A stretch of 64,000 bases of DNA, from positions 4,712,662-4,776,661 of the forward strand of contig OZ241843.1 in the NCBI GenBank assembly GCA_965202695.1. Direction: 5' to 3'. The DNA comes from Vicinamibacterales bacterium (lineage in GTDB: Bacteria > Acidobacteriota > Vicinamibacteria > Vicinamibacterales > UBA8438). Every line of letters begins with the position of its first letter. The stretch's first letter is position 1. Shown here one piece after another: positions 18,847 through 40,905 of the stretch. The position numbers and the translations under genes are program-made. Under the pieces are notes generated by a model. It had not been told where the DNA came from. It worked only from the letters and a program-made list of their open reading frames with translations, and did not search any database.

Positions 18847-19136
18847 CGAGCCGGAGGCCGGCGTTGGATCGACGGACGACCCGCCGCCGGGGCCGCGCGT
18901 GTCGACGACTTGGCGAGGTGGAGCCTACCATAGCTTGAACAGGATCGACACGACGGCTCTCCCGTTCTACACTGGCAGGCATGGCGATGGGCACGGCGCG
19001 CGTGACGCGTATCCGCGATCCGTCCACCCGATTGCTGCTCGGAGTCAGGCGTTCGCGGCGTGTTCGAACTCGGCGGCTTCGGTCCGGGTAGCAACGGAAT
19101 GGCCGCCGTGCGGCAGCGGATTCACGGAAGGCGGCG

Positions 19137-23015: not shown

Positions 23016-26000
23016 TCATCCACGGTCACGTTCAGCAGGACCACGTCCTTCAGCTCCTTGAACAGCTTTTCCTCGTTGGAACGAAGGGCTTGTGACTACC
23101 GCCGTCTTCGTGCCGCCCCCGTGTCGCGTGACGCGCGGCCGGCAACGGACCTTCACCGCGCCCCGGGTGAACGCGTCGTCGGTGGCCCGGCTGCTCCAGG
23201 CGAACGCCTCGCCCGGACCGAGGGCGGCGAGCTTCGCGGGCGTCAGCGCGTCGAGCGCCGCGTTCGCCTTCTGCACGTGTTTCAACCAGGCCGGCGAATT
23301 GAACTTGTGCAGGATGATCTGGGTGGACAACTCGATGAGCGCGGTCGGGACGGATGGAGGATCCTGCGAAGCCACCATCACGGTCGTACCCTTGTGCCGC
23401 ATCTCGCGGACCACTTCGACCAGTCCGGCCACGAGGTCGGGACTGTCGATGTACTTGTGGGCCTCGTCGAACACGACCAGCTTGTTGAAACGGCGACCCT
23501 GCCAGGTGGTTTCGGCGAACATCTGCAGCAGTACGACGAAGAGTCCGAGCGCCTCGTCCTTTTCGACGAGTTCGTCCCGAAGGTCGACGATGACGAGACG
23601 TCCCGGACGCAGGACGTCCGTCAGCCGGCGGGTGTCGTCGATATATTCCTCCGCGAAGCGCAGTCGCAGCAGGGCAAGCTCCTTCAGGTAGTCGGACAGG
23701 CCGGAGTCCTGCACTTCCCGGCGCAGGGCGTTCAGGGTGATCTCGCCACGCAGCTTCTTCATGATCAGCGCGAGTTGCCGGATGTACAGGCTCTGGCTGC
23801 CGACGGCGCCCATGAGGAACTTCCAGTGCGACGCCTTCAGCTCCGACGCTGCGAATCCGATCGGCAGGACCTCGACGCCGGGATGCTCGGCGCGGCGCTC
23901 CGCGACTTTGGAGGCCGGGGCCAGAATCACCAGATCTTCCAGCGCCCGCGGCGTCGCGCCGTATTCGGCCCGCAAGGCGTCCACTTCCGGCCCGCCGGCG
24001 TTGGGCGCGGCCATCGAAGTGAACTCCGGCCGGTAGTCGAGCGTCGCGCTGTAGTGGAAGATCACCCCGGCGAGCGGATGCGGAAGCCGGTTCACGCCCT
24101 CGATCGGCATGCAGGCCATCTCGACGACGCTCCCCAACGTATAACTCTTGCCGCCGCCCTGGACGCCGAAGAGGCTGATCGTGTGGGTCTGGTTCAGGTC
24201 GAGCGCGATCTTGCGGCCGGAAGTCCGGCCGAGCACGCCGTACTGGGGCGATGCCGCGGTCGCACCGAGGATGGCGTCGCAGGCGGGGGCGCCCTCGTCC
24301 GCGACCGGCTCCGCCACGGCAACGGGCAGCACCGGTTGCACTGGGGTTTCCTGCCGCCGCGTGGCTGGTGGCTTCGGTTCCTGGGTTTCCGGCGCGGCCG
24401 GCAACTTCGGCTCCGCCGCCGCCCGCCCGTCACCGCGCAACGCCTCCGGCTCCGCCGCCGCCCGCCCGGTCCGCGGCTTCTCCCGGGGCCCGGACCCCGG
24501 CCGGTCACCGGACGGTTCACGTTCCCCGCCGGCGGGTTCGCCGCCGACCGGCGTGGACGCAGTCGCCTCCGTGCTCGACACGACCGCCTCTTCAAGCCGC
24601 GCGATTCCGCCGGCCGGAGCGTCCGCCGCCCCGCGGTCGACGTCGGAAGTCGATCGCGCACGTTCCGCCGCCAGGAACGCGGCGGTTTCGAGACGGGGCA
24701 GCAGCCGTTCCACCGGCCGCCCGGCTGCGCGCGGCGCGCCGCCGGAGCCGCCACCGACCGCGCCGACCGCGCGCTCCACGAGACCGCGAATCAGATCGAT
24801 GCCCACACGGTGGAACTCGACGCCCGCTTCGTGTTCCGGCGGCTCCGTTCCGGACTTGTCGAAGTCGAACACCAGACCGCTGCGCGAAAACCGGAGCGAA
24901 TAGCCGTCTTCCAGCGCGTCGAGAAACGACCGGGCCTCCGCTGCAGCGGCGGAATCCAGCAGGTCGTACCGCACGCCACGGTCCAGATGGAACCCGATCA
25001 GGACGCCCAGCTCGCGGGTCTTGAGCAGTCGGTCCGGACGGTCGGGCGCAGCACGCCGGGGGTCGAAATGCGTCTGGAGCACGCGCTCGCTCTGGTCTAT
25101 CTGCTCGATCATCTGCTCCTTGAGCCGGCCGTACGCACTCAGCCCGAGCTTCCGGGCGTAACACTTCACTTCGATCAGGTTGCAGGTGATCGTCCGTTGC
25201 GCGAAATCGAGATCGAACAGCGCGAGGTCCGTCCGGCGCACGGTCACCTCGTCGCCGATGGCCTCGGCCTGGTTGCGGACGCCGTGGAACAGTTCGAGGT
25301 GCGCATCGAGCGACACGACGATCTGGTTGCGCAAGGCGCCCTGATGCTCCAGGAACATGCGCGCCAGCGCCAACCCGAGGGCTTCGGCCCTTGCCGTCGG
25401 CGAGGAGACGAGCTTGAGGGCGAGACGTCCGGAAAGCGATCGCAGGTGAGCGAGGATGACGGCCGCTTGCCGCTCCCCGGCGTGGAGGCCGTATTCCGCC
25501 AGCACGGGGCCGAGGATGGCTTTCAGCTCATCGAGCGATCTCGAGCTGATGACGAGGCGGTGGCCGTGTTCGGGCGCCGCCGGCGTGTAGTCGATCAGAT
25601 AGTCGGGACGGTCGCGCCGGCCGCCGTGGTCGAAGAACTCGATGCCCATGTTCCGATCGAGGGTGAACACCCAGTCGCTGGCGTCGTGGACTTCGCTGAT
25701 CAGTGCGCGGCGGTCGGGACCGAGCACCAGACGGATGATCGGCCGGGACTCGAAGTCCGGCATGGAGCGGGCCACGGTCGCGGTCGAGGCCGAGATTCGC
25801 GCCGGGAGTCTTTCCAGGAGCATGGACGTTTCCTCCGCTCCCGCGATGATCGCCGGCGCCCCGTGACGAGGCTGCCGCTGCCACCAGACGCCGCTGTCGT
25901 CGTCCTGATAGCGCACCGTGAACGCCTGGACCAGGCCGTGCAGCGGAACGGTCTTCTCCGGCCGCAGCGGACGGCCCGCCGCGACCTGCTCGGGCGGAAA

Positions 26001-28631
26001 GAGGTCGAACAGGAAGCTGACGTGCGACCGGTAGCGGGCCGGGTCACGTCGAAAGTCGGCCGTCGCGAGGACCGCCACGGCGAGTTTCGGGAAAACGCGG
26101 CTCTGCGCCGGGATGGAGAATGCTTCGCCGCCCGATGCGCCGTTGCCCGCGAGGAGTTCCCCGATGGAGTCGCCCACGCCGGGAGCGTTCGCGTCGGGCA
26201 CGAACAGACGCACGTCGTAGCGCAGATCCCCGAACCCGTCCCGCCGCTGCAAGGCGACCAGCGCAGCGGCGAGAATCGCGGCGCGCCCCGGGTTGAACGC
26301 GTTGATGGTGAGCGTTCGCACGTAGGGATGCTGGACGAGATAGCGTTCCAGGCGCGCCGCCAGGACGTCGCCGGTGATCGCCGCACCGCCGATCGACGGT
26401 TCCGGCAGGCCGAGGGCCGCGCAAACGTCTCCGAGCAGGCCGCGCGGATCGTCCTCCGCCGCGGGCGCGTACAGCGGCCACAGTGCGTGGACGTTGTCGA
26501 CGGCGGCGAAGATGCGGCCGTCGCTGATCGGCAGCAGCGGCGGGACGTCGCCGGAGGGGATTCCGCGCAGCAGGGCCTCCCGCGCCGGCGCCGCGTGTTC
26601 GCGCGGTCCCGTGGCGGCGTCCGTGACCCATGCCGCGCCGAGTTGCGCCCAGGCGAGTTGCCGCAGGACCCGCAACGGATGGGTCGGCGCGAGAAGTGCC
26701 GCCTCGCGCACGTGTCCGCGATAGTCCCGGAGGACGAGCCGAACGGTGTCGACGGTCAACGCCGATCGCAACGACACGATCGCCTTGCGCTGGTCGCTGC
26801 CGGCCGCCCGTTCGACCTGCCCGGCAAGGTCCGCGAGCAGATCGTCGTACGCCGCGGCGTAGGCCGCGATCGCGGGGCTGTTGCTCAGGAAGTCGAGTCC
26901 CTGGGACACGAGATTCCGGGCTCCCCGCACGCGGTCGAAGTACGCCGAGCGAGCGTCCAGAAAGCTGCGCGCCGCGGCCGACGCCGGCCACTCCCCGACT
27001 TCGCCGGCCGGTGTCCGCGGCTCGCCCACGTGGATCCGCATCCGCCAGCTCAGCGGGTGTTTCGGCGATTCGAGAATGCGCTGCTCGACGTCCTTCAGCC
27101 AGCGCGCCACCGCGATCCGGAACGTGCCGTCCCGGCCGAATCCGGCTTCGAGCGTCTCCTGCGCCACGGCCCGCCGCGGCGTGCTGCGCTGCGCCCACGC
27201 AACCCGTTCCGGCGTCACCTCCGCCGGTTCGCGCTGCTGCAGGATCGCCGCGAACTGCCGTTCGAGCCGTGCGTGCTCGACGCTGTCGGCGCGGGGCACG
27301 GACCGCTGTGGCGGTTCGTCTTCCCGATCCGCCTCCGGCAGGACGTAGAACGGCTCGCTCTCGTTCGGCCGCCTGCCCGTCCGATCGGCGGGTTCTTCGA
27401 CCGGGATCGGATCGCCGTCCGCGGTCCAGGGCAGCACGCGCACGTGGTGCCAGCCCTCCTCGAAATCGATCCGGTTGAGCTTCAGGAACGAGACCGCGGC
27501 GTGCGTCCTGGCCGGCTTCCAGACCTTGACCTTGCGGGACGCGCCGACCGGACCGGCGTCCTTCGCGACGATCTGCGCCGTGAAGTGGTCCAGCCCCCGC
27601 ACTTGCCGCGGGTGCGGATCCACCTCCAGGACGACGCCGAACTTCCGGCGATCCTTCGGCGCGAGAACCTGCTGGCCGACCAGATCGGCGAGCCGGTCGT
27701 CCGCGGCTTCGTCCTCCGTCACGACGGGCAGGTCCGTATCGACGCGCACGAACCGGATCCGGTCCGGCGCGATTTCGGAACCGAACTCCCACTTGTCGAA
27801 CGACAGCTCCCAGTTCCGGCGGTCGAGCACGATTTCGCGGGTCCAGGCGACGGGATCCTCGATGCCCGTTTCCGAAAGGTAGGCGGCCAACCGGCGCCGG
27901 AGGCCCTTGTTGACGAGATCGAGGTCCAGCACCCGGCCCAGCACCGACGCGGCGGCGTCGGTCAGGCGCCGGACGCAGTGCAGGTTCTTGCGCACACGCC
28001 CGTACGCCGCCGGCGGATCGTCGAACAGCTTGAAGTCGGGAACCAGTCCCAGCTCGTACAGCGCGCCGCCGAACGCCTCGCCGTCGTTGCCGTTCGCCTG
28101 CGCGCAGAGCAGGTAGCGAACCTGGGCCGCCGTCCCCGCCCAGCTCCACGGCTGCTCCCGCAGATGCCCCAGCAGGCCGCGCACGTACCCGTGCAGCGAG
28201 GAGGGGACACGCGCCAGCACCTGCCCCCGGATGGTCTCGTAGGCGTCGCCGGTCCGGAACTCCTCGAACGTCGCGCTGCCGAACGAGTCCTCGGCGCTCG
28301 TCCGCAGGTTCGGCGGCAGGAAGACGCACAACGGCGGCCGCAGCGATCCGTCCGGCCGCGGGTTGCGCAGCTCGACCAGCTTCGTCGACGACACGTGGAG
28401 GTCGTCGCCGGGGAGAGGCGCGCCCTCCGCGAGCACGTGGACGTTGGCGGCGGGGACCTGGCGGCGCAGCGCTCCGGCGAGCGCGATCATCAGATCCGGC
28501 CCCAGGTCCGACACCCGCATGCAGTGTCCCGGCTTCCTGTCGCGCAACGCGGCCACGAGCGCGGGCAGGAACAGCTCTTCGATGCTGCGCGTGAGGTCGG
28601 AAGCAGGAAGGGCCCGGAACGCGCCGCTCAT
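23016..28631 (-). CDS. 1871-aa protein: large unknown N-terminal region, PD-(D/E)xK-like motif, Ala/Pro/Glu-rich linker, C-terminal HerA/FtsK(DUF87)-like ATPase (DptH-like architecture)
   Basis: ATGA overlap with the upstream gene. TDLALFDLD..NLIEVKCY near aa 1135-1157. Walker A FGVQGGGKS (aa 1489-1496), Walker B KLVVFDEAHKY (aa 1717-1727). The antisense 1867-aa ORF is an Arg/Gly/Pro-rich artefact. Confidence 0.85.
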   Translation of the reverse strand: MSGAFRALPASDLTRSIEELFLPALVAALRDRKPGHCMRVSDLGPDLMIALAGALRRQVPAANVHVLAEGAPLPGDDLHVSSTKLVELRNPRPDGSLRPPLCVFLPPNLRTSAEDSFGSATFEEFRTGDAYETIRGQVLARVPSSLHGYVRGLLGHLREQPWSWAGTAAQVRYLLCAQANGNDGEAFGGALYELGLVPDFKLFDDPPAAYGRVRKNLHCVRRLTDAAASVLGRVLDLDLVNKGLRRRLAAYLSETGIEDPVAWTREIVLDRRNWELSFDKWEFGSEIAPDRIRFVRVDTDLPVVTEDEAADDRLADLVGQQVLAPKDRRKFGVVLEVDPHPRQVRGLDHFTAQIVAKDAGPVGASRKVKVWKPARTHAAVSFLKLNRIDFEEGWHHVRVLPWTADGDPIPVEEPADRTGRRPNESEPFYVLPEADREDEPPQRSVPRADSVEHARLERQFAAILQQREPAEVTPERVAWAQRSTPRRAVAQETLEAGFGRDGTFRIAVARWLKDVEQRILESPKHPLSWRMRIHVGEPRTPAGEVGEWPASAAARSFLDARSAYFDRVRGARNLVSQGLDFLSNSPAIAAYAAAYDDLLADLAGQVERAAGSDQRKAIVSLRSALTVDTVRLVLRDYRGHVREAALLAPTHPLRVLRQLAWAQLGAAWVTDAATGPREHAAPAREALLRGIPSGDVPPLLPISDGRIFAAVDNVHALWPLYAPAAEDDPRGLLGDVCAALGLPEPSIGGAAITGDVLAARLERYLVQHPYVRTLTINAFNPGRAAILAAALVALQRRDGFGDLRYDVRLFVPDANAPGVGDSIGELLAGNGASGGEAFSIPAQSRVFPKLAVAVLATADFRRDPARYRSHVSFLFDLFPPEQVAAGRPLRPEKTVPLHGLVQAFTVRYQDDDSGVWWQRQPRHGAPAIIAGAEETSMLLERLPARISASTATVARSMPDFESRPIIRLVLGPDRRALISEVHDASDWVFTLDRNMGIEFFDHGGRRDRPDYLIDYTPAAPEHGHRLVISSRSLDELKAILGPVLAEYGLHAGERQAAVILAHLRSLSGRLALKLVSSPTARAEALGLALARMFLEHQGALRNQIVVSLDAHLELFHGVRNQAEAIGDEVTVRRTDLALFDLDFAQRTITCNLIEVKCYARKLGLSAYGRLKEQMIEQIDQSERVLQTHFDPRRAAPDRPDRLLKTRELGVLIGFHLDRGVRYDLLDSAAAAEARSFLDALEDGYSLRFSRSGLVFDFDKSGTEPPEHEAGVEFHRVGIDLIRGLVERAVGAVGGGSGGAPRAAGRPVERLLPRLETAAFLAAERARSTSDVDRGAADAPAGGIARLEEAVVSSTEATASTPVGGEPAGGEREPSGDRPGSGPREKPRTGRAAAEPEALRGDGRAAAEPKLPAAPETQEPKPPATRRQETPVQPVLPVAVAEPVADEGAPACDAILGATAASPQYGVLGRTSGRKIALDLNQTHTISLFGVQGGGKSYTLGSVVEMACMPIEGVNRLPHPLAGVIFHYSATLDYRPEFTSMAAPNAGGPEVDALRAEYGATPRALEDLVILAPASKVAERRAEHPGVEVLPIGFAASELKASHWKFLMGAVGSQSLYIRQLALIMKKLRGEITLNALRREVQDSGLSDYLKELALLRLRFAEEYIDDTRRLTDVLRPGRLVIVDLRDELVEKDEALGLFVVLLQMFAETTWQGRRFNKLVVFDEAHKYIDSPDLVAGLVEVVREMRHKGTTVMVASQDPPSVPTALIELSTQIILHKFNSPAWLKHVQKANAALDALTPAKLAALGPGEAFAWSSRATDDAFTRGAVKVRCRPRVTRHGGGTKTAVVTSPSFQRGKAVQGAEGRGPAERDRG

Positions 28632-30289
28632 GCCGAACCCCCGGACGCCGAAATCGTGTAGCGGGGCGTGATCGTCTGGGTCACGAACGCGTCGGACAGG
28701 TCGCGGAAGAACCCGACTTCCCGCAACCGGTTCCTGAAGTGCTCCCCGTTCGCCCGGAGCGCGGCGAGGTCGTCGACGTCGGGCGCGTCGAACCCGTCAC
28801 CCGGAGGCAGGCGATCGACGTGGATCCCGTAGCGTTCGCGCAGGAACGTCACGAGCTCGTCAATCCGGATCTCGCGCGTCGAGAACCCGGAACCCGACGA
28901 TTCGAGCACCGCGATCTGCAGCAGCACCTCCAGCAGGCGGCTGCCCATGACGAAACGCCGGGCGCCGCCTCTCGACTGGCGCATCAACCCCGCGTCCCGC
29001 CGCTTGAACAGGGAGTCGAGGAACTCGGTGACGTAGCGCCGGTGGTACGGACCCCGCAACGCCATCAGCATCTCGATGAACAGGTCGAGATCGCTCAACC
29101 CCATTCCGGTCAGGCGCGCGAGCTCGGGATCGATCTCGTCGCGCGGGCGCCCGCCCGTATCCTCGAGCAGGCCGGCCAGCCGCATCTTGAAGTAGCTCTC
29201 GCGCTCGGCGGCATGCGGCGGCTCGAGAAGCTGAAGCAGATCGCCGACGCCGAAATATCCCGCCGGCGGCACGGCCAGCCGGCCGACCTTGCGGCTCAGG
29301 TACCCGGAGAACTCGTCGAGCTTGCGCAACAGGTATTGCGACTGCACGTAGAGCGGAATGCGCCGATAGTGCGCGTCCGCGCTGCGCCGGGCGAGGTCGG
29401 CCATCCGGCCGTCGAACGCGTGGCCGAGATCGACGAGCAGATGAACCCGATAGGGGCAGCTTCCGTGGGCGCGCATCCGTCCCGGCTGCACGGGGCAGTT
29501 GCCCGGCGCGCACGTCGGGTCGGCGCCCCGCCGGCGCACCAGCACGGGAAGCAGCTTGATGAGCCGCAGGTAGTAGAGGCCCAGGTGGAACGCGAACAGG
29601 GTCTTCAGGTACTCGACCAGGACGGAGCGCGGCACGTGCCGTTCGTAGGCCAGCAACCGCAGCACGTCGTCGGCCAGCAGATCGACCTGGCCGACGCACA
29701 GCGGCGGAAAGCGCTCCGGCTCCTGCGAGTCCTTCATGTCCACCGTCACCTGCCGATCGAAATGCAGGAGCGCCTGCGTCTCGACGTCGACCGGCGCGGA
29801 CGCGTCGTAGCGGTCGGTGTGCAGGTCGACGCCCGCGAAGAAGAAGCGCCGCAACGCATCGCGGGCGGCCTGGCCGCGCCCGCCGCGGGCGTGGTAGAGC
29901 ATCCAGTAGAGCTGCTCGGCCGCGCCGTAGTCGCGGGCGTGGCGCGCGTTCCGGAACTTGTAGGTGTTTCCGTGCAGGGGCCGCGGCGCCGCCAGCGCCT
30001 GGTTCGGTTTCCCCCGGTTCACCAGATCCATCAGGTCCGTTTCGATCCAGCGCTCGACGACGTCCGGGTGCTCGTCGAAGCCCGCGAACATGCCCGGGTC
30101 CTTCGTGTACTCCCGGGCGAAGTCCCCGACCGTCAGGTCGTGCCGGCGCGGCGGCCGGCGCGTGCCGTAGCCGTCGAACCGGAGCCGCGGAAACAGCATG
30201 GTCAGCACCCGGTCCATGTTGAGCGGCTTGAAGTCGATGTAGGACAGCTTCTCGAGGCGGAACTCCCGGTCGCGGCCCTTGAGCGCCAT
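28628..30289 (-). CDS. 553-aa protein of unknown function (DptG-like position)
   Basis: Its ATG at 30289 overlaps the kinase-gene stop by 1 nt, and its stop overlaps the next start (ATGA). Normal composition. Cys cluster CAPGNCPVQPGRMRAHGSCPY. Confidence 0.75.
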   Translation of the reverse strand: MALKGRDREFRLEKLSYIDFKPLNMDRVLTMLFPRLRFDGYGTRRPPRRHDLTVGDFAREYTKDPGMFAGFDEHPDVVERWIETDLMDLVNRGKPNQALAAPRPLHGNTYKFRNARHARDYGAAEQLYWMLYHARGGRGQAARDALRRFFFAGVDLHTDRYDASAPVDVETQALLHFDRQVTVDMKDSQEPERFPPLCVGQVDLLADDVLRLLAYERHVPRSVLVEYLKTLFAFHLGLYYLRLIKLLPVLVRRRGADPTCAPGNCPVQPGRMRAHGSCPYRVHLLVDLGHAFDGRMADLARRSADAHYRRIPLYVQSQYLLRKLDEFSGYLSRKVGRLAVPPAGYFGVGDLLQLLEPPHAAERESYFKMRLAGLLEDTGGRPRDEIDPELARLTGMGLSDLDLFIEMLMALRGPYHRRYVTEFLDSLFKRRDAGLMRQSRGGARRFVMGSRLLEVLLQIAVLESSGSGFSTREIRIDELVTFLRERYGIHVDRLPPGDGFDAPDVDDLAALRANGEHFRNRLREVGFFRDLSDAFVTQTITPRYTISASGGSA

Positions 30290-33200
30290 CAATCCGCCTC
30301 CCCGGCGAGGGCGTCGAGCGTGAGGACGCCCTCCTCTCCGCGCGCGATGCGGAAATAATCGTGGCCGGTCCGGGTGAGAAGCACTTCCTGATAGGGCGCC
30401 GACGACAGCACGTTCTTGAAGACCGCCAGCGACAGGTAGTGGCCCTGCTGCTCCTCGAGACTCGGGCGGTAGCCGTCCCGGAGTCTCGACAACATCTCGT
30501 AGACGTCGAGATCCACGATCAGTTCAGCCGGCTGGCCGCCCGGGGGCTCGTGCACGAAACGCAACGCCGGGGGCATGTGCTCGACGAAGCGCTGCTCCGA
30601 CGGCGCCGGGAGCGCCAGGCGGAAGCGCGCGCCGGGAAACAGGCGGTAGCTCCGCACCGTGCCGCGGTCCACGACCCGCACGCGCAACGCCAGCGCGTCG
30701 CCGACCGGCCGCGGGTCCCGGAGGCCTTCGCCGCGGTTGATGCCCGCGATCAGCCGATCCCGGTAGAGGCCCGGGTCGGTCTCTCCCGCCACGAGCCTCC
30801 AGAACTCGCCGTAGGTCCGGTACGGCAGCATCTCCTTCCAGCGCTCGTCGCGCCGCTCGAAGAACTGGCGCCGCCGGAGCATGGCCACGTAGCCGCGGTG
30901 GGCGGCCGCGCCCCCGGCGCCGGGCGGCGCGGGATCGTGCGGCAGATCCCGGTGCAGCCGCTCCAGGAGCCGCGTGTCGTAGTCGCCGCGCCGATCGAAC
31001 GTGAAGCGCGCCGTCTCGCCGGCGGTCGGCGGCAGGTAGTCGAGGGCGCGGTCGAGGTCCGGGTTCGTGGCTTCGCCGACGTCGATCTCCCGCAAGCGGG
31101 TCAGCAGGCGGTCTCCCGAACCGCCGCCCTGCCAAGCGTTGAAGTAGAAGCTGTCCACGATCTGCTGGCGGGCGCCGGCGTCGGAACCGGCGTACAGCGC
31201 GTGGATCCGGTCGCAGTCCCGCGCCCCCGCCAGCGTGAAGGCGAGCGCCGAACGGAGGTCCCGCATCGTGACGTGGAGCCGCCCCCGAAGGTGGGTGATC
31301 GCATACAGGGCGCGCAACCGTTCGACGACCTTCGGTCCGGCGACCGGATCCTGCAGCGTACGGGCGTTGTGGTGCGCGTAGCAACGATCGCGGATGTCGC
31401 AGCCGGCGCACGCGGCCCAGAACCGATCCGCGGTGAGTCGGCGGACGAGACGGTCGAAGATGGCGTCCGACGGGCCGCCCTCCGAGCCGGCGACGACCGA
31501 GCGCAGGTTCAGGTTCACGGCGGCGACGCCGTCCTCCGGCGCGGCGCCGGCCAGCCCCGCCAGCACGATCGCCCGCAACCGGCGGTACCGGTCCGCGTGC
31601 TCGCTGAGGAAGTCGACCAGCCGGCCCTCGTTGACGGCGATGATGCGCGTTTCGTCCCGCGGCCAGCCGCCGCCGTCGTCGCCTTCGAAAGGCTGGAAGA
31701 AATCCCGCAGCACGTCGTCGTTGGCCTTGTCTTCCTCGTCCTGGCTGCCGTCGTGGTTGGTGACGAAGCGCCGGCCGGCGCACGTGAACTCGGCCCCGTT
31801 CGGCCGCGCCGTCAGCGTGGCCGCCGCCTCGGTGGCGCGCTCGATCTGCTGGATGAACGCCGTCTTGCCGTCGCCGGCGTTGCCGGTGACGACGACGAGG
31901 CGGAACTCGCCTCCGAACAGCGCGGGGCGGAGCCGCTCGTCCAGCAGGGTCCGCACGTACGTCTCGCGGCCGATCTCGTCGAGACCGCGAGTGCCCGCGT
32001 TGCTCCGCGGACTCTGGCTGTACATCGCTTGCAGGTGGCTGACGAACGGATTGAAGTTCGGCTTGCGCGGCGGCGGCAGCGGCGGATCGCCGGTTGCGGC
32101 TGTTTCGTCGGCGGGCGGCGCGGCGCGGACGCTGCCGATTTCCGCGAGCGCGGCGCGGAACGCCGCCGCGGACGCGAACCGATCCGCACGGCGGGGCGCG
32201 ATGGCCCGCACCAGGACCCGCGCGAACCCGGGCGCGAGATGGCCGGCGTAGTCCGCCGGCTCGGTGGGCGCCACGTCCGCGACGGGCGCGGCGCCCTTCC
32301 ACGGATACCTGCCCGTGGCGCACTCGTAGAGCGTGACGCCGAGGGAAAACAGATCCCAGTCGGTCTTCTCGTCCGCCGTCATTTCCTCCGTGAACTCCAG
32401 ATCGGGCGGGATGTAGCGGCGGGTGCCGCCGGGGCGCGCCTCGTCGTCGTCGCGGTGCGCCGCGACGTTGAAGTCGATGATACGGACGCCCCGATCCGTC
32501 CAGAGCAGGTTCGAGGGCTTGACGTCGCGGTGGAAGACGCCGTTCCGGTGCAGGTGCTCCAGGCCGGCGAGGGTCTCGGCGCCGAGCCGTCCGACGTCTT
32601 CCGGCGAAAGCGAGCCGTTGTCGAGCAGCTCGTTCACCCCCGTGCCGGGCACGTACTCGAAGACCAGGTACGGCGTGCCGTCCCGCAGCTTGTCCGCCCA
32701 GACCACGCGCACGACGTTCGGATGGGGCGGCAGACGCTCCAGCACGCTGTATTCCCGCTTGAGGCGCTCGAACGTCGAACGCCGATCCTTGACGATGATC
32801 TTGAGCACCCGGCTGGTGTCCGAGAACGCGTCGAACACGCGGTAGACGACCGCGAACGCGCCCTGGCCCAGCCGCTCTTCGATGCGGAAACGGCCGGCGA
32901 CGTCGTCGCCCCGCCGCAAGGCGGCGTAGTCCACCTCGGGCCGGTGGGCCGGCGCGGCGGCGCGTTCGGGAGCCCCGGCCCGGCCGCCGTCGCGCGGGTC
33001 GGGGCCGACGATCTCGTTGAAGCGGGCGAGCGCGACGGCGGCCGACGACGGCCGGTCCTCCCCGTCGAACGCGCACAGGCCCTGCAGCCACTCGTCGACC
33101 GCGGGCGGCAGCTCGGGCTTCTGTTCGGACGGCTTCACCGGGAACACGCCGTCCTTCTCCATCATGTCGTCGATCGACGTCCAGGCCGGCTCGCCGACCA

Positions 33201-34407
33201 GCAGCTCGTAGAAGACGAGGCCGGCGGCGTACAGGTCGGACGCCACGCTCGCCTGCGAGGCGTCCCGGTAGCACTCGGGCGCCTGGTACATCGGATCGAG
33301 TTCGTCGACGACGTCGTCGGCGATGGTGGTGCCGGCCTGGTCGCGGCCGGCCCGCGCATGGTCGAAGCCGCAGAGCAGCGCCCGGCCCGAGGCGGCGACG
33401 AGCACCGCGTCCGGCGTCAGGTTCCGGTGCACGACCCGCGGTTCGCTCCGGTGCGCGTGGCCGAGGGCGGCGAGCACGTCGCGGACGACCGCGATCTTCT
33501 GGTCGAACGTCAGCGCCAGCGCGCTCTTCCTGACGTGCTGGCGCAGGGCGTGCCCGGCCACGTCCGCGGTGACCAGGACGAAGCGGTCCTCCGCCTCGGT
33601 CGGGAAGAACTCGCGCACGGTCAGGACGTTCGGGTGTCCGGGCAGCGCCGCCACCGCGCGGTAGGCGTTCTCGATGCGGCGGCGCTCCCGCCGGCGCTCG
33701 TCCTCCGGCAGGTACGGATCGACCGGATATATCCGCAGCCGGGCGGTGCCGCCGCGCTTTGCGCCGAGCAGCGTGTGCTTGGCGCGGTACTCCGTATAGC
33801 GGTCGGTCCCGCCGAGCCGTTCCTCGACCTGCCACGTGCCGTAGCACGGCGGCGCGCTCCTCGGCTTCGCGCCGCCGACGATCGCCTGCCGCACGCGGCG
33901 GAAGTGCGCCCGGACGTCGGTGGACCGGCCGGGCGGAATGCGCGTCGTGGCCTGGAAGAAGGCGGCGCACTTCCGGAGGTACGCCACCGACGGACCGTCC
34001 TGGCCGCCCGGGTCCTGGACGAACGCGTCGGGCGCGGTCATCAGCACCGCGGCGTCGACGTACAGGCCGCCGAGCGCCCGGTCCGTCGGATGCCGGTCGC
34101 AGATCAGCGCCTTCAGCACCTTCGCGTGCCGGCGCAGGATCGCCAGCGGCGAGTGGTACGGCGCGCGCCCCTCCGGGTACCACCGGCCGCCGTGGACGTC
34201 GACGTGGCCCCGGGTGCCCTTGACGTCGATCACGTGGACGCAGTGCGGGCCGAGCAGCGCCGCGTCGATCTCGTGGATCTCGTGGCCCTGCCGCAACTCG
34301 AAGTTGTGGATGACGGTGAAGGTGTCCGGCAGGTGGTCGCGCAGCCAGGCGATCGCCTCCCGCTCGGAGTCGTTGACCGGCTGGCCGATGGCGACGACTT
34401 TGGCCAT
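30289..34407 (-). CDS. 1372-aa NERD + pseudokinase + Ser/Thr kinase + P-loop NTPase fusion protein
   Basis: The start MAKVVAIGQ overlaps the S-subunit stop by 1 nt. NERD motif EIDAALLGPHCVHVIDVKGTRG. Kinase 1 is degenerate (HRN, GFD, no G-loop). Kinase 2 is canonical (GQGAFAVV, VLK, HRDVKPSN, DFN). Walker A VVVTGNAGDGKT. Confidence 0.9.
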   Translation of the reverse strand: MAKVVAIGQPVNDSEREAIAWLRDHLPDTFTVIHNFELRQGHEIHEIDAALLGPHCVHVIDVKGTRGHVDVHGGRWYPEGRAPYHSPLAILRRHAKVLKALICDRHPTDRALGGLYVDAAVLMTAPDAFVQDPGGQDGPSVAYLRKCAAFFQATTRIPPGRSTDVRAHFRRVRQAIVGGAKPRSAPPCYGTWQVEERLGGTDRYTEYRAKHTLLGAKRGGTARLRIYPVDPYLPEDERRRERRRIENAYRAVAALPGHPNVLTVREFFPTEAEDRFVLVTADVAGHALRQHVRKSALALTFDQKIAVVRDVLAALGHAHRSEPRVVHRNLTPDAVLVAASGRALLCGFDHARAGRDQAGTTIADDVVDELDPMYQAPECYRDASQASVASDLYAAGLVFYELLVGEPAWTSIDDMMEKDGVFPVKPSEQKPELPPAVDEWLQGLCAFDGEDRPSSAAVALARFNEIVGPDPRDGGRAGAPERAAAPAHRPEVDYAALRRGDDVAGRFRIEERLGQGAFAVVYRVFDAFSDTSRVLKIIVKDRRSTFERLKREYSVLERLPPHPNVVRVVWADKLRDGTPYLVFEYVPGTGVNELLDNGSLSPEDVGRLGAETLAGLEHLHRNGVFHRDVKPSNLLWTDRGVRIIDFNVAAHRDDDEARPGGTRRYIPPDLEFTEEMTADEKTDWDLFSLGVTLYECATGRYPWKGAAPVADVAPTEPADYAGHLAPGFARVLVRAIAPRRADRFASAAAFRAALAEIGSVRAAPPADETAATGDPPLPPPRKPNFNPFVSHLQAMYSQSPRSNAGTRGLDEIGRETYVRTLLDERLRPALFGGEFRLVVVTGNAGDGKTAFIQQIERATEAAATLTARPNGAEFTCAGRRFVTNHDGSQDEEDKANDDVLRDFFQPFEGDDGGGWPRDETRIIAVNEGRLVDFLSEHADRYRRLRAIVLAGLAGAAPEDGVAAVNLNLRSVVAGSEGGPSDAIFDRLVRRLTADRFWAACAGCDIRDRCYAHHNARTLQDPVAGPKVVERLRALYAITHLRGRLHVTMRDLRSALAFTLAGARDCDRIHALYAGSDAGARQQIVDSFYFNAWQGGGSGDRLLTRLREIDVGEATNPDLDRALDYLPPTAGETARFTFDRRGDYDTRLLERLHRDLPHDPAPPGAGGAAAHRGYVAMLRRRQFFERRDERWKEMLPYRTYGEFWRLVAGETDPGLYRDRLIAGINRGEGLRDPRPVGDALALRVRVVDRGTVRSYRLFPGARFRLALPAPSEQRFVEHMPPALRFVHEPPGGQPAELIVDLDVYEMLSRLRDGYRPSLEEQQGHYLSLAVFKNVLSSAPYQEVLLTRTGHDYFRIARGEEGVLTLDALAGEAD

Positions 34408-35822
34408 CAGGCCGCCGCCCGTTCCTCGATCCAGCGCTCCACGACGGCGCGCGCCTCGCGCTCCCGGCCGATCGCGTCGTGCCGGGCGGTGCGGACCGCG
34501 AAGGCGCGCCGGCCGAACTCCGCCGTCCGCGCGTCGTCGAGCCGCGGCAGCACGACGCCCGCGACGGCCGGTTCGTCGAGGTGGGGGATGGAGGATCCGA
34601 ACGCGCGGGCCTTGAGTTGCCGCCGTCCGTACTCCGACGAGAGGCAGGCGAACAGGTACCCGGCCTCGGCTTCGCTTGCGCTGAACAGCCTCATCGCGTC
34701 GTGCGTGACCGTGGCGCCAACCACGTCGCCGTAGGGAAGCACGGCGTGTCCGATGATCCCGTTCAGTTGTCCGGAGGCCGGCACCAGCACGGTCGTTTCG
34801 TCGACGATCAGGTTCTCGAAACCCGGCGTGCGCCGCGCCAGCAGATAGCCGGCCTCCGGATCGGATCGCATGAGCGCGGAGGTGCCGAAGAACGGCAGGC
34901 CGAATCGCGGGTCCTCGACCGGAATGCGCTTGAACATCGGCGGCCAGAACACCCGTTCGGCCAGTGCGCCCACCGTCGTCCGGCGCGCCGCCGGGAGCGC
35001 CGCCAGCGGCTCCAGCGCGGCGCGGTGCCAGTTGCCGTGGAACAGGCCGTCCATCCGGCCGCGGAGGGCGCCGGCCCGCACCAACGCCGTGTCCGGCGAC
35101 GCCGGCCCGGACCGCCGGCCGATGGGAGGCAGGCCGGCCGCTTGCTCGATTGCGCGGACGACCACCCGCAACTCCGCGGACGCCTTCGTCCGCAGCGCCG
35201 CCGCCTCGGTCACGAGCCGGTGCGCCTCGTCCTGCACGTCGTCCGGGGCGAGGGGCACCGGCGCCCGCGCGACGTGCCGCGGCTCGACGTGCTGGACGAT
35301 CGCGCCGTAGGTCCCTCCCGTCAGCAGCGGCAGCCCGAAGCGGCCGCTCAGGAAGGCGTAGAGGTACCCCGGCCGGACGCGCGCCGGGTCGGGCGCGATC
35401 TTGAGCACGTCCTGAGACGACCACATTCCGGACATTTCCAGACGCGCGTAGGACGTCCGCCCTATCGTGCCCGAGCACGACATCAGGGTCATGTCCGCGT
35501 CGAGTCGCAAATGGGCAAGCCGGGCGGAGGAGGCGTCGGACTTCTTCAGAAGGTCGGCGTGCGTGAAGTCCGCGTGCAGCATGCTGCTGCCTGTGAGGAA
35601 ACGAACGCCGTGTTCGGGATCGGAAACGTAGTTCCTCACGAACTGCGGTCCGTTGTAGATGCCGCCCTCGTGCCCGCGCGTGAGAGCGCAAAGATCGGAC
35701 CGGGCCGCGGGCAGGCGCTCCAGAAGCATCCGGGCCTCCATCGCGCCCGACAGGTACGGCCCGCAGTCGAGCCGCCGGCCCTCCCGCACGATCCAGGCGC
35801 TCGGAACGTGCTTCTCTTTCAT
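34407..35822 (-). CDS. type I R-M specificity-subunit-like protein (HsdS-like, two target-recognition halves)
   Basis: Two-lobed layout with a central helical spacer (EAHRLVTEAAALRTKASAELRVVVRAIEQ) and a C-terminal one. GSSIPHL-type conserved block. An alternative start lies at 35858. Confidence 0.7.
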   Translation of the reverse strand: MKEKHVPSAWIVREGRRLDCGPYLSGAMEARMLLERLPAARSDLCALTRGHEGGIYNGPQFVRNYVSDPEHGVRFLTGSSMLHADFTHADLLKKSDASSARLAHLRLDADMTLMSCSGTIGRTSYARLEMSGMWSSQDVLKIAPDPARVRPGYLYAFLSGRFGLPLLTGGTYGAIVQHVEPRHVARAPVPLAPDDVQDEAHRLVTEAAALRTKASAELRVVVRAIEQAAGLPPIGRRSGPASPDTALVRAGALRGRMDGLFHGNWHRAALEPLAALPAARRTTVGALAERVFWPPMFKRIPVEDPRFGLPFFGTSALMRSDPEAGYLLARRTPGFENLIVDETTVLVPASGQLNGIIGHAVLPYGDVVGATVTHDAMRLFSASEAEAGYLFACLSSEYGRRQLKARAFGSSIPHLDEPAVAGVVLPRLDDARTAEFGRRAFAVRTARHDAIGREREARAVVERWIEERAAA

Positions 35823-35963
35823 CGCGACGCTCGGCGCTCTCGGGCCGTCGCCGTCCACGATCCCCCGACCCGGCGGCCGATCACGTCGACGTTGCCGCTG
35901 CCGCGAGGACGAACGGCTGCCCCGTTCCGCGTCCGCGTCCGACTCCGCGGCGGGCCTGACTGG

Positions 35964-36464
35964 TCAACGGGGGCGGGAATGCCTTGCGGCCGGCGGCCGA
36001 ACGTCGGTTCGGGTCGGCGGCGTCAGGTGGCCCAATTGCTCCAGGACGAATGCGTCAGGCAAATCCGAAGATTTTTCGTAGTGGGCGCGCCGGCTCCGTC
36101 CACCGACGTACGCATGGCAGTCCGCCCGCCCGTCGTCGCGCAACAGGACAAGGACGGCGCCCGGCCGGTCGGGCACCTTGAAGTGCAGGGCGATTTCGGC
36201 GTCCTGCGTCGGGTAGACGGTAAGCAAGACACTTGCCGGCGCGCGTTGCGTCAAGGCCCGAACGAGCCTCTCCGCCTCCGCCTTGGTGGTTTCGCCGACC
36301 TGCGGAAGGTTTTCTTCCGCGATTTCGTCGTCGACTTCCGCCAGTTCCGCCAGGGCGTCCGCGAGCCGACGTGGCTCCGGCGGGCCGAGGCGCCGGAAAG
36401 CGCCGCCCGGCGGGCTCGCGCCAACCGGCGACGGGGCGTGCGGCTCGCTCCGTTCTCGGTCCAT
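35964..36464 (-). CDS. 166-aa hypothetical protein
   Basis: ORF taken from the internal ATG (MDRERSE..). The C-terminal about 110 aa have normal alpha/beta-like composition. No motif recognised. Confidence 0.4.
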   Translation of the reverse strand: MDRERSEPHAPSPVGASPPGGAFRRLGPPEPRRLADALAELAEVDDEIAEENLPQVGETTKAEAERLVRALTQRAPASVLLTVYPTQDAEIALHFKVPDRPGAVLVLLRDDGRADCHAYVGGRSRRAHYEKSSDLPDAFVLEQLGHLTPPTRTDVRPPAARHSRPR

Positions 36465-36658
36465 CGCCACGCGTTCAGTATACGGGAGCCGGGGCCGACC
36501 TCGTCGTGACCGGCGCTTCGGAATCCTCCCGACCAGCCCCGGCCGCCCCGCCGTCGGCTCGTTTGTCGGCGGTCTGGACGCTACCCCTCGGCCGGACAAG
36601 TGCTCCCTGGGGAATCGGTGCGAACCGGGTTCGCCACGAGGTCGTCACCCTCGGGGCT

Positions 36659-36695
36659 GCCGCGGCTCCGGGACGATCAGCCCGCCGGCGGATTC
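36659..36695. repeat. right copy of the 37-bp direct repeat (partner at 22698..22734)
   Basis: See 22698..22734. The two copies are 13,961 bp apart. Confidence 0.85.
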
Positions 36696-37660
36696 GGGTC
36701 GAGCGCGATCTGGACCGCTTGCGCCGGCGGAGCGACGAAAGGCGTCTGTGCCGTTATGAAGGCGTGGCCAGCATGGTTCTCGACGATCTTGACGGCTGAC
36801 GTGCCGGTGAACGTGTGCGTGGTCGCGTGGAACACCGAGAGACCGAGATCCTGGAGTTTTTCGTCGTCTTCCAGCGCAAGGATCGAAAGCCCTTGCTCGG
36901 ACAGATCGGACCGGGACAGGTGTCGGCTGTGGCTCTTGAACCGCTTGTGATCCGACAGCCAGTCCGAGACGGAGCGAGCGAATTCCGCACGATCGTCCCT
37001 GTGTCTGAACATGTACGCTTCAAGCCAGGTGCTCACCAGTTCCCTCGACAACTCCAGGGCCGTTTCGCAGTGCACAAGCAGATCCGGCCCGTACTGGCTC
37101 AGCATCGGGAGCCACGCGGACAGCTTGGCGGGGTCCGAGCACTCCCGTTGCGCCTTGTCGAACTGATCCAGCACCGCCTGCGCCGGGATGTAGCGCGTCC
37201 CCAACGGCGTCGCCAGCAGCACCTGCGGGTCGGTCGGGCCGAGAAACGAGTGCTTCCCCATCATGATTTCGTCCGCGGCGCACGAGATCATGGTGGCCGC
37301 GGACATGGCGAGCTGCGGGACGATGACGCGAATGTGGGAGAACCGGGAACGAAGATAGGCGACGATGCCCGCGGCGGCTTCAGGGGAACCGCCCGGGCTG
37401 TGGAGGATCAGATCGAGATTCGGACCCCGCAAGCCTGAAGTGACCTCCATGAGGGCATGAATGTCCTCGTCGGTGATGGAAGTGCGCGCCGGCGGAGCGT
37501 CGTCCCGTTGCAGCCATCCGGAGGCGTACAGAACGACATCGCGATCGGTGTGGCGATGAAGGTCGGCGAGATACCGGCGTCGAACGCCGTCGAAGTCAGG
37601 GGGCGAACCTTGCGCCGCCGACTGGCTCAACTCGGCAAGGATGCCGCTCCAAAGAGGCAT
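36677..37660 (-). CDS. SDH-family Clp-fold serine protease (ClpP/SppA-like fold)
   Basis: LILHSPGGSPEAA and QLAMSAATMISCAADEIMM resemble the Clp/SppA serine-protease core. The sequence is visibly lower in GC than its neighbours. Confidence 0.7.
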   Translation of the reverse strand: MPLWSGILAELSQSAAQGSPPDFDGVRRRYLADLHRHTDRDVVLYASGWLQRDDAPPARTSITDEDIHALMEVTSGLRGPNLDLILHSPGGSPEAAAGIVAYLRSRFSHIRVIVPQLAMSAATMISCAADEIMMGKHSFLGPTDPQVLLATPLGTRYIPAQAVLDQFDKAQRECSDPAKLSAWLPMLSQYGPDLLVHCETALELSRELVSTWLEAYMFRHRDDRAEFARSVSDWLSDHKRFKSHSRHLSRSDLSEQGLSILALEDDEKLQDLGLSVFHATTHTFTGTSAVKIVENHAGHAFITAQTPFVAPPAQAVQIALDPNPPAG

Positions 37661-37668
37661 GCGGCGCG

Positions 37669-37893
37669 TCAGGAGCCCGGCCGGAAGTTCGCATGGTCGG
37701 TCGTCGTGGTGCGCGACGGCGTCCTGGTCACCGCGCGGTAGGGATCGAGCCCGCGATCGGCGGTGCGCCAGTCGCCGTACACGCGCATGATCTCGGGGAT
37801 GCCCGGGCGCTTGCGAGCTTCCTCAAGCAGCGCGGCGTGCGCCCGCGCCCGTTCGGAGGTCTTCTCTTCGTCGGATCGTCGGGTTATCGTCAT
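37669..37893 (-). CDS. 74-aa hypothetical protein upstream of the protease
   Basis: Its stop lies 8 nt before the protease ATG. It has a charged helical N-terminus. Weak evidence. Confidence 0.4.
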   Translation of the reverse strand: MTITRRSDEEKTSERARAHAALLEEARKRPGIPEIMRVYGDWRTADRGLDPYRAVTRTPSRTTTTDHANFRPGS

Positions 37894-40200: not shown

Positions 40201-40488
40201 CTGGCCACTCCCTGGCGCCCGCGCTCTGCCGCCGGCCGCTCCAACGGCCGATGTGCCGGCGACGGAACGGCCGCTGTCCACGAACCCCGGACGCCGAGTC
40301 CCCTCTTCCTGGCCAAGGTGCAGATGGTCTTCTCGGCTGCCGTTCAGGAGGCCCGCGACCTCCCGGAGCGTCAGAACGTCGTCCGAGGCAAGGCAACCCC
40401 GGTTCCGGCCAACTCCAATGGAGCCGGCGCCAAAGGGGGCGGATCGTACATCAAAGAGAGCTTGACCGCGGATCAGAGGCGTGTTAAG

Positions 40489-40500
40489 TGTTGCGCAACA
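40489..40500. promoter_or_regulatory. perfect 12-bp palindrome TGTTGCGCAACA, candidate operator in the divergent HTH/methyltransferase promoter region
   Basis: It lies 28 nt upstream of the HTH GTG start, inside an AT-richer 330-bp divergent intergenic region. Confidence 0.45.
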
Positions 40501-40527
40501 TGCAAATCCGGGGAGGAGCACAGCGTC

Positions 40528-40905
40528 GTGGCCGGGACCTTCGGTGAGACGATCCGGGAAATGCGGCAGGCGCAGCGGATGGGCCTGCGCGCCGCCGCGG
40601 ACCGTCTCGGGATCTCGCCCGCCTACCTCAGCCGCATCGAGCGGGGCCGGGAGCGCCCGCCGAAGCCGGACCTGGTGAAGCGGCTGACGGCTCTCCTCGG
40701 CGGCGACTCGGACCTGCTGTTCCGACTCGCGGAGAGCACCGACCCGGACCTCGCGGAGTACGTGCGCAGCGTTCCGAACGTGCCCGAGTTCCTGCGCACG
40801 GCCCGGGCGATGAAACTGACGTCGGACGACTTCGCGGCGCTGATCGAGGACGTGAAGCGGCGCCGGCCGTCGGAAGCGGCGCGCACGACGGGCGCCGGCG
40901 TGTGA
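40528..40905 (+). CDS. Xre-family helix-turn-helix regulator (controller-like)
   Basis: GGAGGAG RBS 9 nt before the GTG at 40528. HTH sequence IREMRQAQRMGLRAAADRLGISPAYLSRIERG. Transcribed divergently from the methyltransferase. Confidence 0.8.
   Translation: MAGTFGETIREMRQAQRMGLRAAADRLGISPAYLSRIERGRERPPKPDLVKRLTALLGGDSDLLFRLAESTDPDLAEYVRSVPNVPEFLRTARAMKLTSDDFAALIEDVKRRRPSEAARTTGAGV

Follow-up and report, generated by a model that had tools for sequence, protein, structure and literature searches.

The methylation-associated defence system (MADS) was discovered in Pseudomonas aeruginosa SMC4386 as an eight-gene operon (Maestri et al., bioRxiv 10.1101/2023.03.30.534895). The prototype carries N6-methyladenine (m6A) at the bipartite motif TCAGNNNNTCC and restricts phage and plasmid DNA that is unmethylated; mad2-4 and mad6-8 are each needed, and mad5 could not be deleted alone. 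The same authors label Mad6 as 'a protein kinase' only, Mad7 as a homologue of DndG/DptG and Mad8 as HerA-like; their MacSyFinder model treats MAD6, MAD7 and MAD8 as mandatory and MAD1, MAD3 and MAD4 as accessory. The subject here is the product of a minus-strand gene, 30289..34407, in a 64,000-nucleotide stretch of the genome of a Vicinamibacterales bacterium (Acidobacteriota; assembly GCA_965202695.1, contig OZ241843.1, positions 4,712,662 to 4,776,661). The whole of that stretch is referred to as the window, and its own numbering is used throughout. Profile matches identify this protein, with high confidence, as MAD6, the kinase subunit of a MADS operon.

Two other bodies of work bear on its anatomy. 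The core of DndF has been published as a derived P-loop kinase with an enlarged all-helical lid of ~200 residues (12-13 helices), to which some versions add, close to where the lid begins, a Zn-chelating insert; a C-terminal alpha+beta domain follows (PMC10853773). Fusions of a NERD domain, an inactive kinase and an active kinase to this core, with Asn in Walker B and the Zn insert in some versions, are already listed (PMC10853773, NAR 2024) and are found again in PMC12839542; the same paper argues that DndFGH is often decoupled from phosphorothioation (PT) genes (NAR 2024, PMC10853773). PglW, the kinase of type-2 bacteriophage exclusion (BREX, or Pgl) in Streptomyces coelicolor, has the identical order of NERD, pseudokinase and kinase at its N-terminus (NAR 2026 BREX survey, PMC12839542); K677A, a change of the catalytic-loop Lys of its second kinase, costs it autophosphorylation and phage resistance alike (PMC4365076).

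The NCBIfam equivalog for MAD6, NF047741, matches the protein with 766.2 bits (cut-off 460; E 2.4e-230), residues 1-624 aligning with positions 1-612 of the 612-position model, and PADLOC mad6 matches at E 3e-92. As in the P. aeruginosa operon, MAD6 has MAD5, MAD7 and MAD8 as neighbours and MAD2 upstream; all five products exceed their own curated NCBIfam equivalog cut-offs, and the genes are co-directional (Table 1). MAD5, MAD6 and MAD7 are, moreover, translationally coupled through TGATG stop/start overlaps: at the junction ...GCC TGATG GCC... the MAD5 stop and the MAD6 ATG have one base in common, and at the 3' end of MAD6 the same arrangement recurs with the ATG of MAD7 (30289), which overlaps the MAD6 stop and is probably the MAD7 start. 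MAD7 and then MAD8 follow MAD6 directly, again with overlaps of stop and start codons.

The 30289..34407 frame translates into 1372 codons and a stop with no internal stops, and each motif quoted in the initial annotation, which had described a single 1372-residue polypeptide, falls at the residues claimed for it. ATG 34407 is a credible start on sequence grounds, because it overlaps the MAD5 stop and because homologues, aligned with 100% coverage, share this Met as their first residue. The frame is open upstream as far as a TTG at 35691; this longer start was rejected, since it would overlap all of MAD5 (34407..35858, in another frame) and homologues begin at the ATG. A frame split by frameshifts, which the initial annotation had allowed for, and a chimeric frame were likewise rejected: the reading frame is intact, and homologues match it in length with 100% coverage. 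Full-length homologues make up more than 120 protein clusters (53-91% identity, 100% query coverage, ~1375-1382 residues) and keep all motif residues, so that the four-part fusion, as judged from sequence, is not due to chance or to a frameshift. Among seven homologues drawn from NCBI the names are uninformative, the only one being a generic 'serine/threonine protein kinase'. Residue conservation was judged in two sets of 15 and 24 aligned homologues, in which all catalytic, Walker and Zn-ligand residues of MAD6 are invariant.

Pfam finds NERD (PF08378) at residues 13-106 (E 1.3e-13), confirming its placement at the N-terminus by the initial annotation, and recognises two stretches of Pkinase (E 2.3e-56); an AlphaFold model that covers NERD and both kinases has a predicted local distance difference test score (pLDDT) of 80. 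The NERD motif EIDAALLGPHCVHVIDVKGTRG occupies residues 46-67. D48, D61 and K63 are the candidate catalytic residues; they are invariant in both homologue sets, as are E37 and E46, and in the model strand 43-52 carries D48 and the consecutive strand 57-63 carries D61 and K63. The signature is thus consistent, in sequence and model, with an active nuclease of the PD-(D/E)xK type. Mean pairwise identity of the domain among homologues is 69%.

The first of the two kinase folds carries ARLRIY at residues 222-227, HRN at 327-329 and GFD at 347-349. Recognition of the fold rests on profile-profile alignment and on the model, because a single-sequence phmmer search of this region (residues 142-500) against the PDB found no match: hhalign aligns residues 237-467 with residues 541-758 of the active domain at a probability of 99.6% (E 1.4e-24), and the succession of strands and helices over 192-470 in the AlphaFold model matches that of 507-755. 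In the hhalign alignment the alphaC Glu is replaced by A248, the HRD Asp by N329, the catalytic-loop Lys by T331, the catalytic-loop Asn by A334 and the DFG Asp by G347. A sixth loss, of the beta3 Lys to R225, lies beyond the range of the alignment, and its pairing with K536 was made by eye from the N-lobe motifs. Across the aligned homologues N329, T331 and R225 are invariant and A248 and A334 almost invariant, and Asp never occupies the DFG position. Fold and substitutions together, the latter conserved or never reverted in homologues, support the designation of the first domain as a pseudokinase, predicted to be catalytically dead. The same call in the initial annotation therefore stands, with one adjustment: to describe the glycine loop as missing slightly overstates the case, for GxGxxG is lost but a shrunken LGGTDRY that retains G199 and G200 is still there. 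Among homologues the conservation of the dead domain exceeds that of the active one (mean pairwise identity 67% vs 59%). A weaker and rather doubtful suggestion, made by analogy with the decoy pseudokinases of plant tandem-kinase immune proteins, is that in MAD6/PglW-type proteins it is the pseudokinase that senses infection.

The second kinase was taken to be canonical, and its residues bear this out. Its motifs are GQGAFAVV (514-521), VLK (534-536), HRDVKPSN (626-633), DFN (645-647) and GTRRYIPPD (661-669), which together supply the complete Hanks set (G514xG516, K536, E552, H626-R-D628-x-K630-x-x-N633, D645-F-N and GTRRYxPPD), so that by sequence this kinase is intact. The catalytic residues are invariant in the aligned homologues; in distant homologues HLD or HQD replaces HRD. 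In the PDB, phmmer matches it to PknB, Stk1 and StkP (E ~1e-22) and Foldseek to the kinase domains of Mycobacterium tuberculosis PknA, PknB and PknI (E ~1e-16). Many PADLOC models of the PD-T4-6 family of stand-alone Ser/Thr-kinase defence proteins also match this domain (E down to 4e-72), and an MkoA model matches the NERD-pseudokinase part; the likeness is at domain level only, those proteins lacking the DndF core and the MAD7 and MAD8 partners.

The N-terminal ~760 residues are homologous to PglW, including a first kinase fold without the ATP-binding Lys, and this raises the question of whether the protein is PglW itself, the kinase of a type-2 BREX locus. PADLOC PglW does match residues 13-758 (E 4e-79), with NERD, inactive kinase and active kinase in the PglW order. 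However, NCBIfam BREX_PglW (NF033442) reaches 255 bits where 990 are required, and its match does not extend into the C-terminal half but stops at residue 763, beyond which MAD6 continues as a DndF/SspF-like core and PglW as a helical domain resembling the C-terminal domain of the RNA polymerase alpha subunit, a triad of winged helix-turn-helix domains and an inactive STAND module. The operon and flanking genes that were scanned match no PglY, PglZ, BrxD or BrxHI model, and the only PglX match, on MAD2, is far below threshold (17 bits vs 400). The failed cut-off and the lack of BREX partners among the genes scanned refute membership of BREX-2, and the PglW identification must be regarded as extremely unlikely.

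The half of MAD6 that follows the kinases bears VVVTGNAGDGKT at residues 838-849, RIIAVNEG at 921-928 and CAGCDIRDRCYAHH at 1000-1013. Invariant among the 15-24 homologues are the Walker A motif G842NAGDGKT849, N884-H/Y-D886 and the Walker-B-like IIAVN926-E927, as well as the putative Zn ligands C1000, C1003, C1009 and H1013 (H1012 is variable), upholding the P-loop half with a Cys/His cluster that had been proposed. Three PADLOC SspF models match residues 786-1372 (E 9.2e-25, 3.7e-20 and 9.8e-19), the weakest of them aligning residues 10-441 of the half-protein with positions 15-454 of a 600-position model; DndF models match at E 2.4e-7 in the C-terminal domain only (half-protein 510-550 on 507-546 of 558). 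The AlphaFold2 model of this half (pLDDT 72) has P-loop strands at the expected places (53-57, 95-100 and 135-141 in half-protein numbering), ~14 helices over 199-442 that form the lid, and strands and helices at 455-583; C216, C219, C225 and H229, in the same numbering, lie at or just past the end of lid helix 2 and before helix 3.

These conserved features agree point by point with the published DndF core (PMC10853773). Like DndF, DptF and SspF, MAD6 has a canonical Walker A motif, Asn (N926) in place of the Walker B Asp, an Asn-Asp motif ending the preceding strand (N-x-D at 884-886, vs contiguous ND), a long helical lid, a Zn-binding insert, a C-terminal alpha+beta domain, and DndG-like and DndH-like genes after it. 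The C-terminal half of MAD6 is, on this sequence evidence, a subunit of DptF/DndF/SspF type. The initial annotation had compared its position with that of DptF, and the comparison has held up: beyond the SspF and DndF matches, an SspG-like gene and then a gene for a HerA-like ATPase follow. Unlike in DndF, only the C-terminal ~590 residues of MAD6 are of this type, and they match the models of DndF itself weakly. A phmmer search of the half against the PDB gave only a spurious match to PspE (E 1.9), the solved structure of DndF or a relative not being found by sequence; in a Foldseek search of the PDB with the model nothing reached E <= 0.001, the best matches being AAA+ clamp-loader and origin recognition complex (ORC) subunits (E 0.06-0.3, TM ~0.2), a result that favours neither the STAND/AAA families considered in the initial annotation nor the P-loop kinase class of the published core. 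An NCBIfam scan of MAD6 (E <= 0.01) listed the MAD6 family and kinase families and no Dpt or Dnd family.

The partners of MAD6 extend the comparison. PADLOC assigns MAD7 to mad7 (E 5e-113) and to SspG (E 2e-7); the link of MAD7 to DndG rests on the latter match and on the published HHpred result for P. aeruginosa Mad7, a single-sequence search of the PDB having returned only a spurious cytochrome match. BLASTP of MAD7 against the C-terminal half of MAD6 detected no similarity, a comparison that is not informative. MAD8 exceeds its cut-off (NF047742, 208 bits vs 175) over residues 35-239, matches PADLOC mad8 at residues 1469-1845 (E 2.5e-39) together with weak HerA matches, and in the PDB finds weak matches to the HerA-like TdpA and YjgR. 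MAD2 reaches 979 bits (NF047738, cut-off 720) over residues 179-826, with N6_Mtase and HSDR_N_2 in Pfam and MTase_II and mad2 in PADLOC; its true start probably lies ~110-180 codons inside the maximal open reading frame (ORF). MAD5 is matched in PADLOC by mad5 and by Specificity_I/II models.

Table 1. Coordinates of MAD6, its domains and motifs, and surrounding genes (numbering of the window; residues in MAD6 unless another protein is named)
Feature	Position	Strand	Remarks
MAD6	30289..34407	-	1372 residues: NERD, pseudokinase, Ser/Thr kinase, DndF/SspF-like core
NERD (PD-(D/E)xK-type) nuclease domain (predicted)	34090..34371	-	Residues 13-106; Pfam PF08378
Pseudokinase domain (predicted)	32998..33837	-	Residues 191-470: LGGTDRY, ARLR225, HRN329, T331, G347-F-D
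Active Hanks-type Ser/Thr kinase (predicted)	32128..32901	-	Residues 503-760; Pfam Pkinase best stretch 508-705
DndF/SspF-type P-loop domain	31453..32052	-	Residues 786-985; PADLOC SspF matches
Walker A, G842-NAGDGKT849	31861..31884	-	Within P-loop domain
All-helical lid region	30718..31452	-	Residues 986-1230; ~14 helices in AlphaFold2 model
Cys3-His cluster (C1000, C1003, C1009, H1013)	31369..31410	-	Within lid region
C-terminal alpha+beta domain	30292..30717	-	Residues 1231-1372; AlphaFold2 model and PADLOC DndF
MAD5, type-I-like specificity (S) subunit	34407..35858	-	NCBIfam NF047740, 432 bits vs 400
MAD7, DndG/SspG-like	28628..30289	-	NCBIfam NF047733, 625 bits vs 410
MAD8, C-terminal HerA-like ATPase	23016..28631	-	1871 residues; DndH-like position; NCBIfam NF047742
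MAD2, N6-adenine DNA methyltransferase	38017..40521	-	NCBIfam NF047738; maximal ORF
Divergent helix-turn-helix (XRE-like) gene	40596..40905	+	Regulator position; start approximate; contains LGISPAYLSRIERGRERP
Cargo of MAD2-MAD5 slot	35964..37893	-	Three genes: 74-residue gene, protease, 211-residue ORF
74-residue gene	37669..37893	-	Cargo slot
SDH-type ClpP-like serine protease	36677..37660	-	327 residues; Pfam PF01972, 61.5 bits vs 31.3
211-residue ORF	35964..36599	-	Between protease and MAD5

With SspF and DndF models matching the C-terminal half of MAD6, an SspG model matching MAD7 and a HerA-like end on MAD8 as in DndH, it may be asked whether MAD6 is instead the DndF/SspF subunit of a PT-dependent restriction system in which MAD6, MAD7 and MAD8 read backbone sulphur and not adenine methylation. 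Several facts speak against it. The partners of MAD6 are an m6A methylase and an S subunit, unlike the phosphorothioation genes DndABCDE or SspABCD of DndF/SspF modules, and no dnd or ssp modification gene was found among the flanking ORFs scanned, which are a part of those in the window. MAD6-8 stand in one operon with the N6-adenine methylase and S subunit in 11 of 11 related genomes and on a Piscinibacter plasmid; the prototype MADS discriminates by m6A (bioRxiv 10.1101/2023.03.30.534895); and NCBIfam returned only the MAD7 model for the gene in the DndG position, only the MAD8 model for the gene in the DndH position, and no Dpt/Dnd family for MAD6. A PT-dependent Dnd/Ssp system was accordingly rejected, there being no PT genes in the scanned ORFs and a methylase coupled to MAD6-8 in every related locus; its residual probability is very small.

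The 11 related genomes (MAD6 at least 59% identical; their loci are labelled L001 and so on) keep the order MAD2...MAD5-MAD6-MAD7-MAD8 and span Vicinamibacterales (a metagenome-assembled genome, 88% identical), other Acidobacteriota, Spirochaetia, and Gamma- and Deltaproteobacteria; of the full MADS loci the closest, L001, is in a Vicinamibacterales genome. MAD5 is the most divergent member of the operon (34-85% across related loci), as expected of a target-recognition subunit. About 40 kb from L001, a second, partial copy (L013, OZ251506.1) comprises the tail of MAD5 and MAD6 residues 1-746 (87% identity), and may be what is left of a duplication or else a paralogue that has been truncated. 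A complete MAD1-8 operon lies on the Piscinibacter gummiphilus plasmid NZ_CP136338.1, where MAD1, 3, 4, 5, 6 and 7 were scanned and all score above their cut-offs. Its MAD6 (1391 residues) aligns with residues 1-1369 of the MAD6 of the window at 47.7% identity, and because this alignment is full length, the four-part architecture is, at the level of sequence, that of canonical MAD6. The full fusion is also the commonest form among the best 150 50%-identity clusters that match the C-terminal half, accounting for 70 of them; ~15 further clusters (842-938 residues) have one kinase only, and in ~9 (578-616 residues) the core is unfused.

The existence of these relatives, kinase-only forms lacking NERD and pseudokinase and stand-alone cores, implies that the added domains are dispensable for the core to work, and it fits an interpretation already given for DndF fusions and for PglW (PMC10853773, PMC12839542): that NERD and kinase are back-up 'suicide' co-effectors, acting by abortive infection, outside the primary pathway, when a phage blocks the nuclease or motor of MAD8. 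The toxicity of PglW in E. coli (PMC4365076) points in the same direction. Against it, the kinase Lys of PglW is needed for ordinary resistance and not just as a back-up (PMC4365076), the N-terminal domains (NERD 69%, pseudokinase 67%, kinase 59%) are conserved as much as or more than the core (61-64% mean pairwise identity), and the four-part form is the commonest among the nearest relatives. We consider a purely back-up role somewhat unlikely.

The preferred reading, in which MAD6 is an integral subunit of a DndFGH-like complex guided by adenine methylation, can be put together as follows, largely by analogy with P. aeruginosa. MAD2, the m6A methylase, and MAD5, the type-I-like S subunit, would mark host DNA at a bipartite motif; MAD6, MAD7 and MAD8, each of them required, would act on unmarked incoming DNA and restrict it. 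The DndF/SspF-type core of MAD6, with its P-loop, Zn-stabilised lid and alpha+beta domain, would dock MAD6 to MAD7 (a DndG-like DNA binder) and MAD8 (a HerA-like motor) in a DndFGH-like complex for sensing and restriction, and its anatomy suggests that it binds nucleotide. The intact Hanks kinase may transmit or enforce the response by autophosphorylation, by phosphorylating partner, host or phage proteins, or both, as PglW would suggest; the dead kinase domain may be its regulatory or scaffolding partner; and NERD, with its intact D...D-x-K signature, would supply DNA cutting.

Certain points weigh against so complete an account. MAD1 (excisionase-type helix-turn-helix), MAD3 (AAA ATPase) and MAD4 (DUF4276) of the prototype are absent here: their NCBIfam and PADLOC models match no ORF of the window in the slot, although good scores are obtained with these models on the Piscinibacter operon. 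Since mad3 and mad4 are needed in the P. aeruginosa prototype, the subtype may differ; because the authors of the system class the three genes as accessory, their absence does not bar membership of MADS. The connection to the DndF family is made by hidden Markov model matches that are strong for SspF and weak for DndF; for the C-terminal half the AlphaFold model is of moderate quality (pLDDT 72) and has no significant neighbour in the PDB (best E 0.06); and a nine-sequence MAD7 profile missed the solved DndG structure in hmmsearch. Function in this organism is carried over by analogy from the SMC4386 prototype, where the published mad6 deletion takes out all four domains together (bioRxiv 10.1101/2023.03.30.534895), which is why the separate roles of NERD, pseudokinase, kinase and P-loop are given above as inferred.

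The operon of the window departs from the prototype also in what it has gained: a divergent XRE-type gene and an unrelated protease cassette. The former stands beside MAD2 and is conserved in that place in six related loci (L001-L005 and L008); it is not matched by NCBIfam MAD1 and is not an orthologue of the canonical excisionase-type MAD1, and to judge from its sequence this clade apparently uses a regulator other than MAD1. The flanking ORFs scanned are housekeeping genes (tig/trigger factor, clpX, clpB and others), and the G+C content of the MADS island is slightly below that of its flanks. Within the window G+C is lowest at 20-24 kb (0.63-0.68). Just past the 3' end of MAD8, in the opposite orientation, is a gene for a UvrD-like helicase (19092..21299, plus strand; PADLOC PDLC03002 'Helicase', E 1e-296), which a candidate model for NERD+UvrD also matches, more weakly; the island may thereby contain one more defence gene.

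The three genes between MAD2 and MAD5 are probably not part of MADS proper. The 211-residue ORF has no match in Pfam, NCBIfam or PADLOC and is conserved only in L001 (75%) and L010 (59%), and the whole cassette is common only to the window and L001. Homologues of the SDH-type protease number more than 3400 (the best 120 clusters listed are 67-92% identical). The protease and the 74-residue gene occur as a pair in L001 and elsewhere (L016-L020), in one setting flanked by DUF499 and DUF1156 genes that belong to another defence system, in another beside a MmeI-type restriction-modification enzyme and a NERD gene. Because it recurs inside or beside other defence loci, the pair looks like independent mobile cargo, as far as gene context goes, and could represent a mobile module for defence or addiction that has not been described before. 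Other occupants of the slot, which in the prototype is taken up by MAD3 and MAD4, are a second, paralogous MAD2-like methylase in many related loci (L002, L003, L005, L008 and L009; 681-716 bits, just below the cut-off of 720), a protein combining DUF4062, HATPase_c_4 and Fic-like_C in L003, L004 and L006, and a DUF1828 protein in L008; MAD3 and MAD4 were seen in none of the 11 related loci. By gene content, then, the MAD2-MAD5 slot behaves as a cargo hotspot. It is tempting, and on balance doubtful, to combine these observations into a single proposal: that the clade of the window (11 genomes) is a distinct MADS subtype working without MAD3 and MAD4, that its MAD2-MAD5 gap docks interchangeable cargo, and that the small-protein/protease pair is a mobile two-gene defence or addiction module inserting into methylase-based defence operons.

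What is established here is not new. The initial annotation had regarded the combination of domains as unusual for a bacterial immune protein, a view that cannot be maintained: it is the defining architecture of MAD6 (NF047741), the fusion is already in print (PMC10853773, PMC12839542), and its three N-terminal domains are common to PglW. MAD6 has already been named, curated models of it exist and its domain dissection has been published; standard annotation would label 30289..34407 as MAD6, and the identification matters little as a discovery. It does confirm that in several phyla MAD6 has the four-part architecture as its dominant and strongly conserved form, and that the essence of MADS is a restriction module of DndFGH/SspFGH type which has been re-coupled to a type-I-like pair of m6A methylase and specificity subunit. 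The residual value of the locus lies in its variable cargo slot and in the biochemistry of MAD6, namely the substrate of its kinase, sensing by the dead kinase and the P-loop, and cutting by NERD, for which the invariant residues of the protein are a ready set for point mutants.

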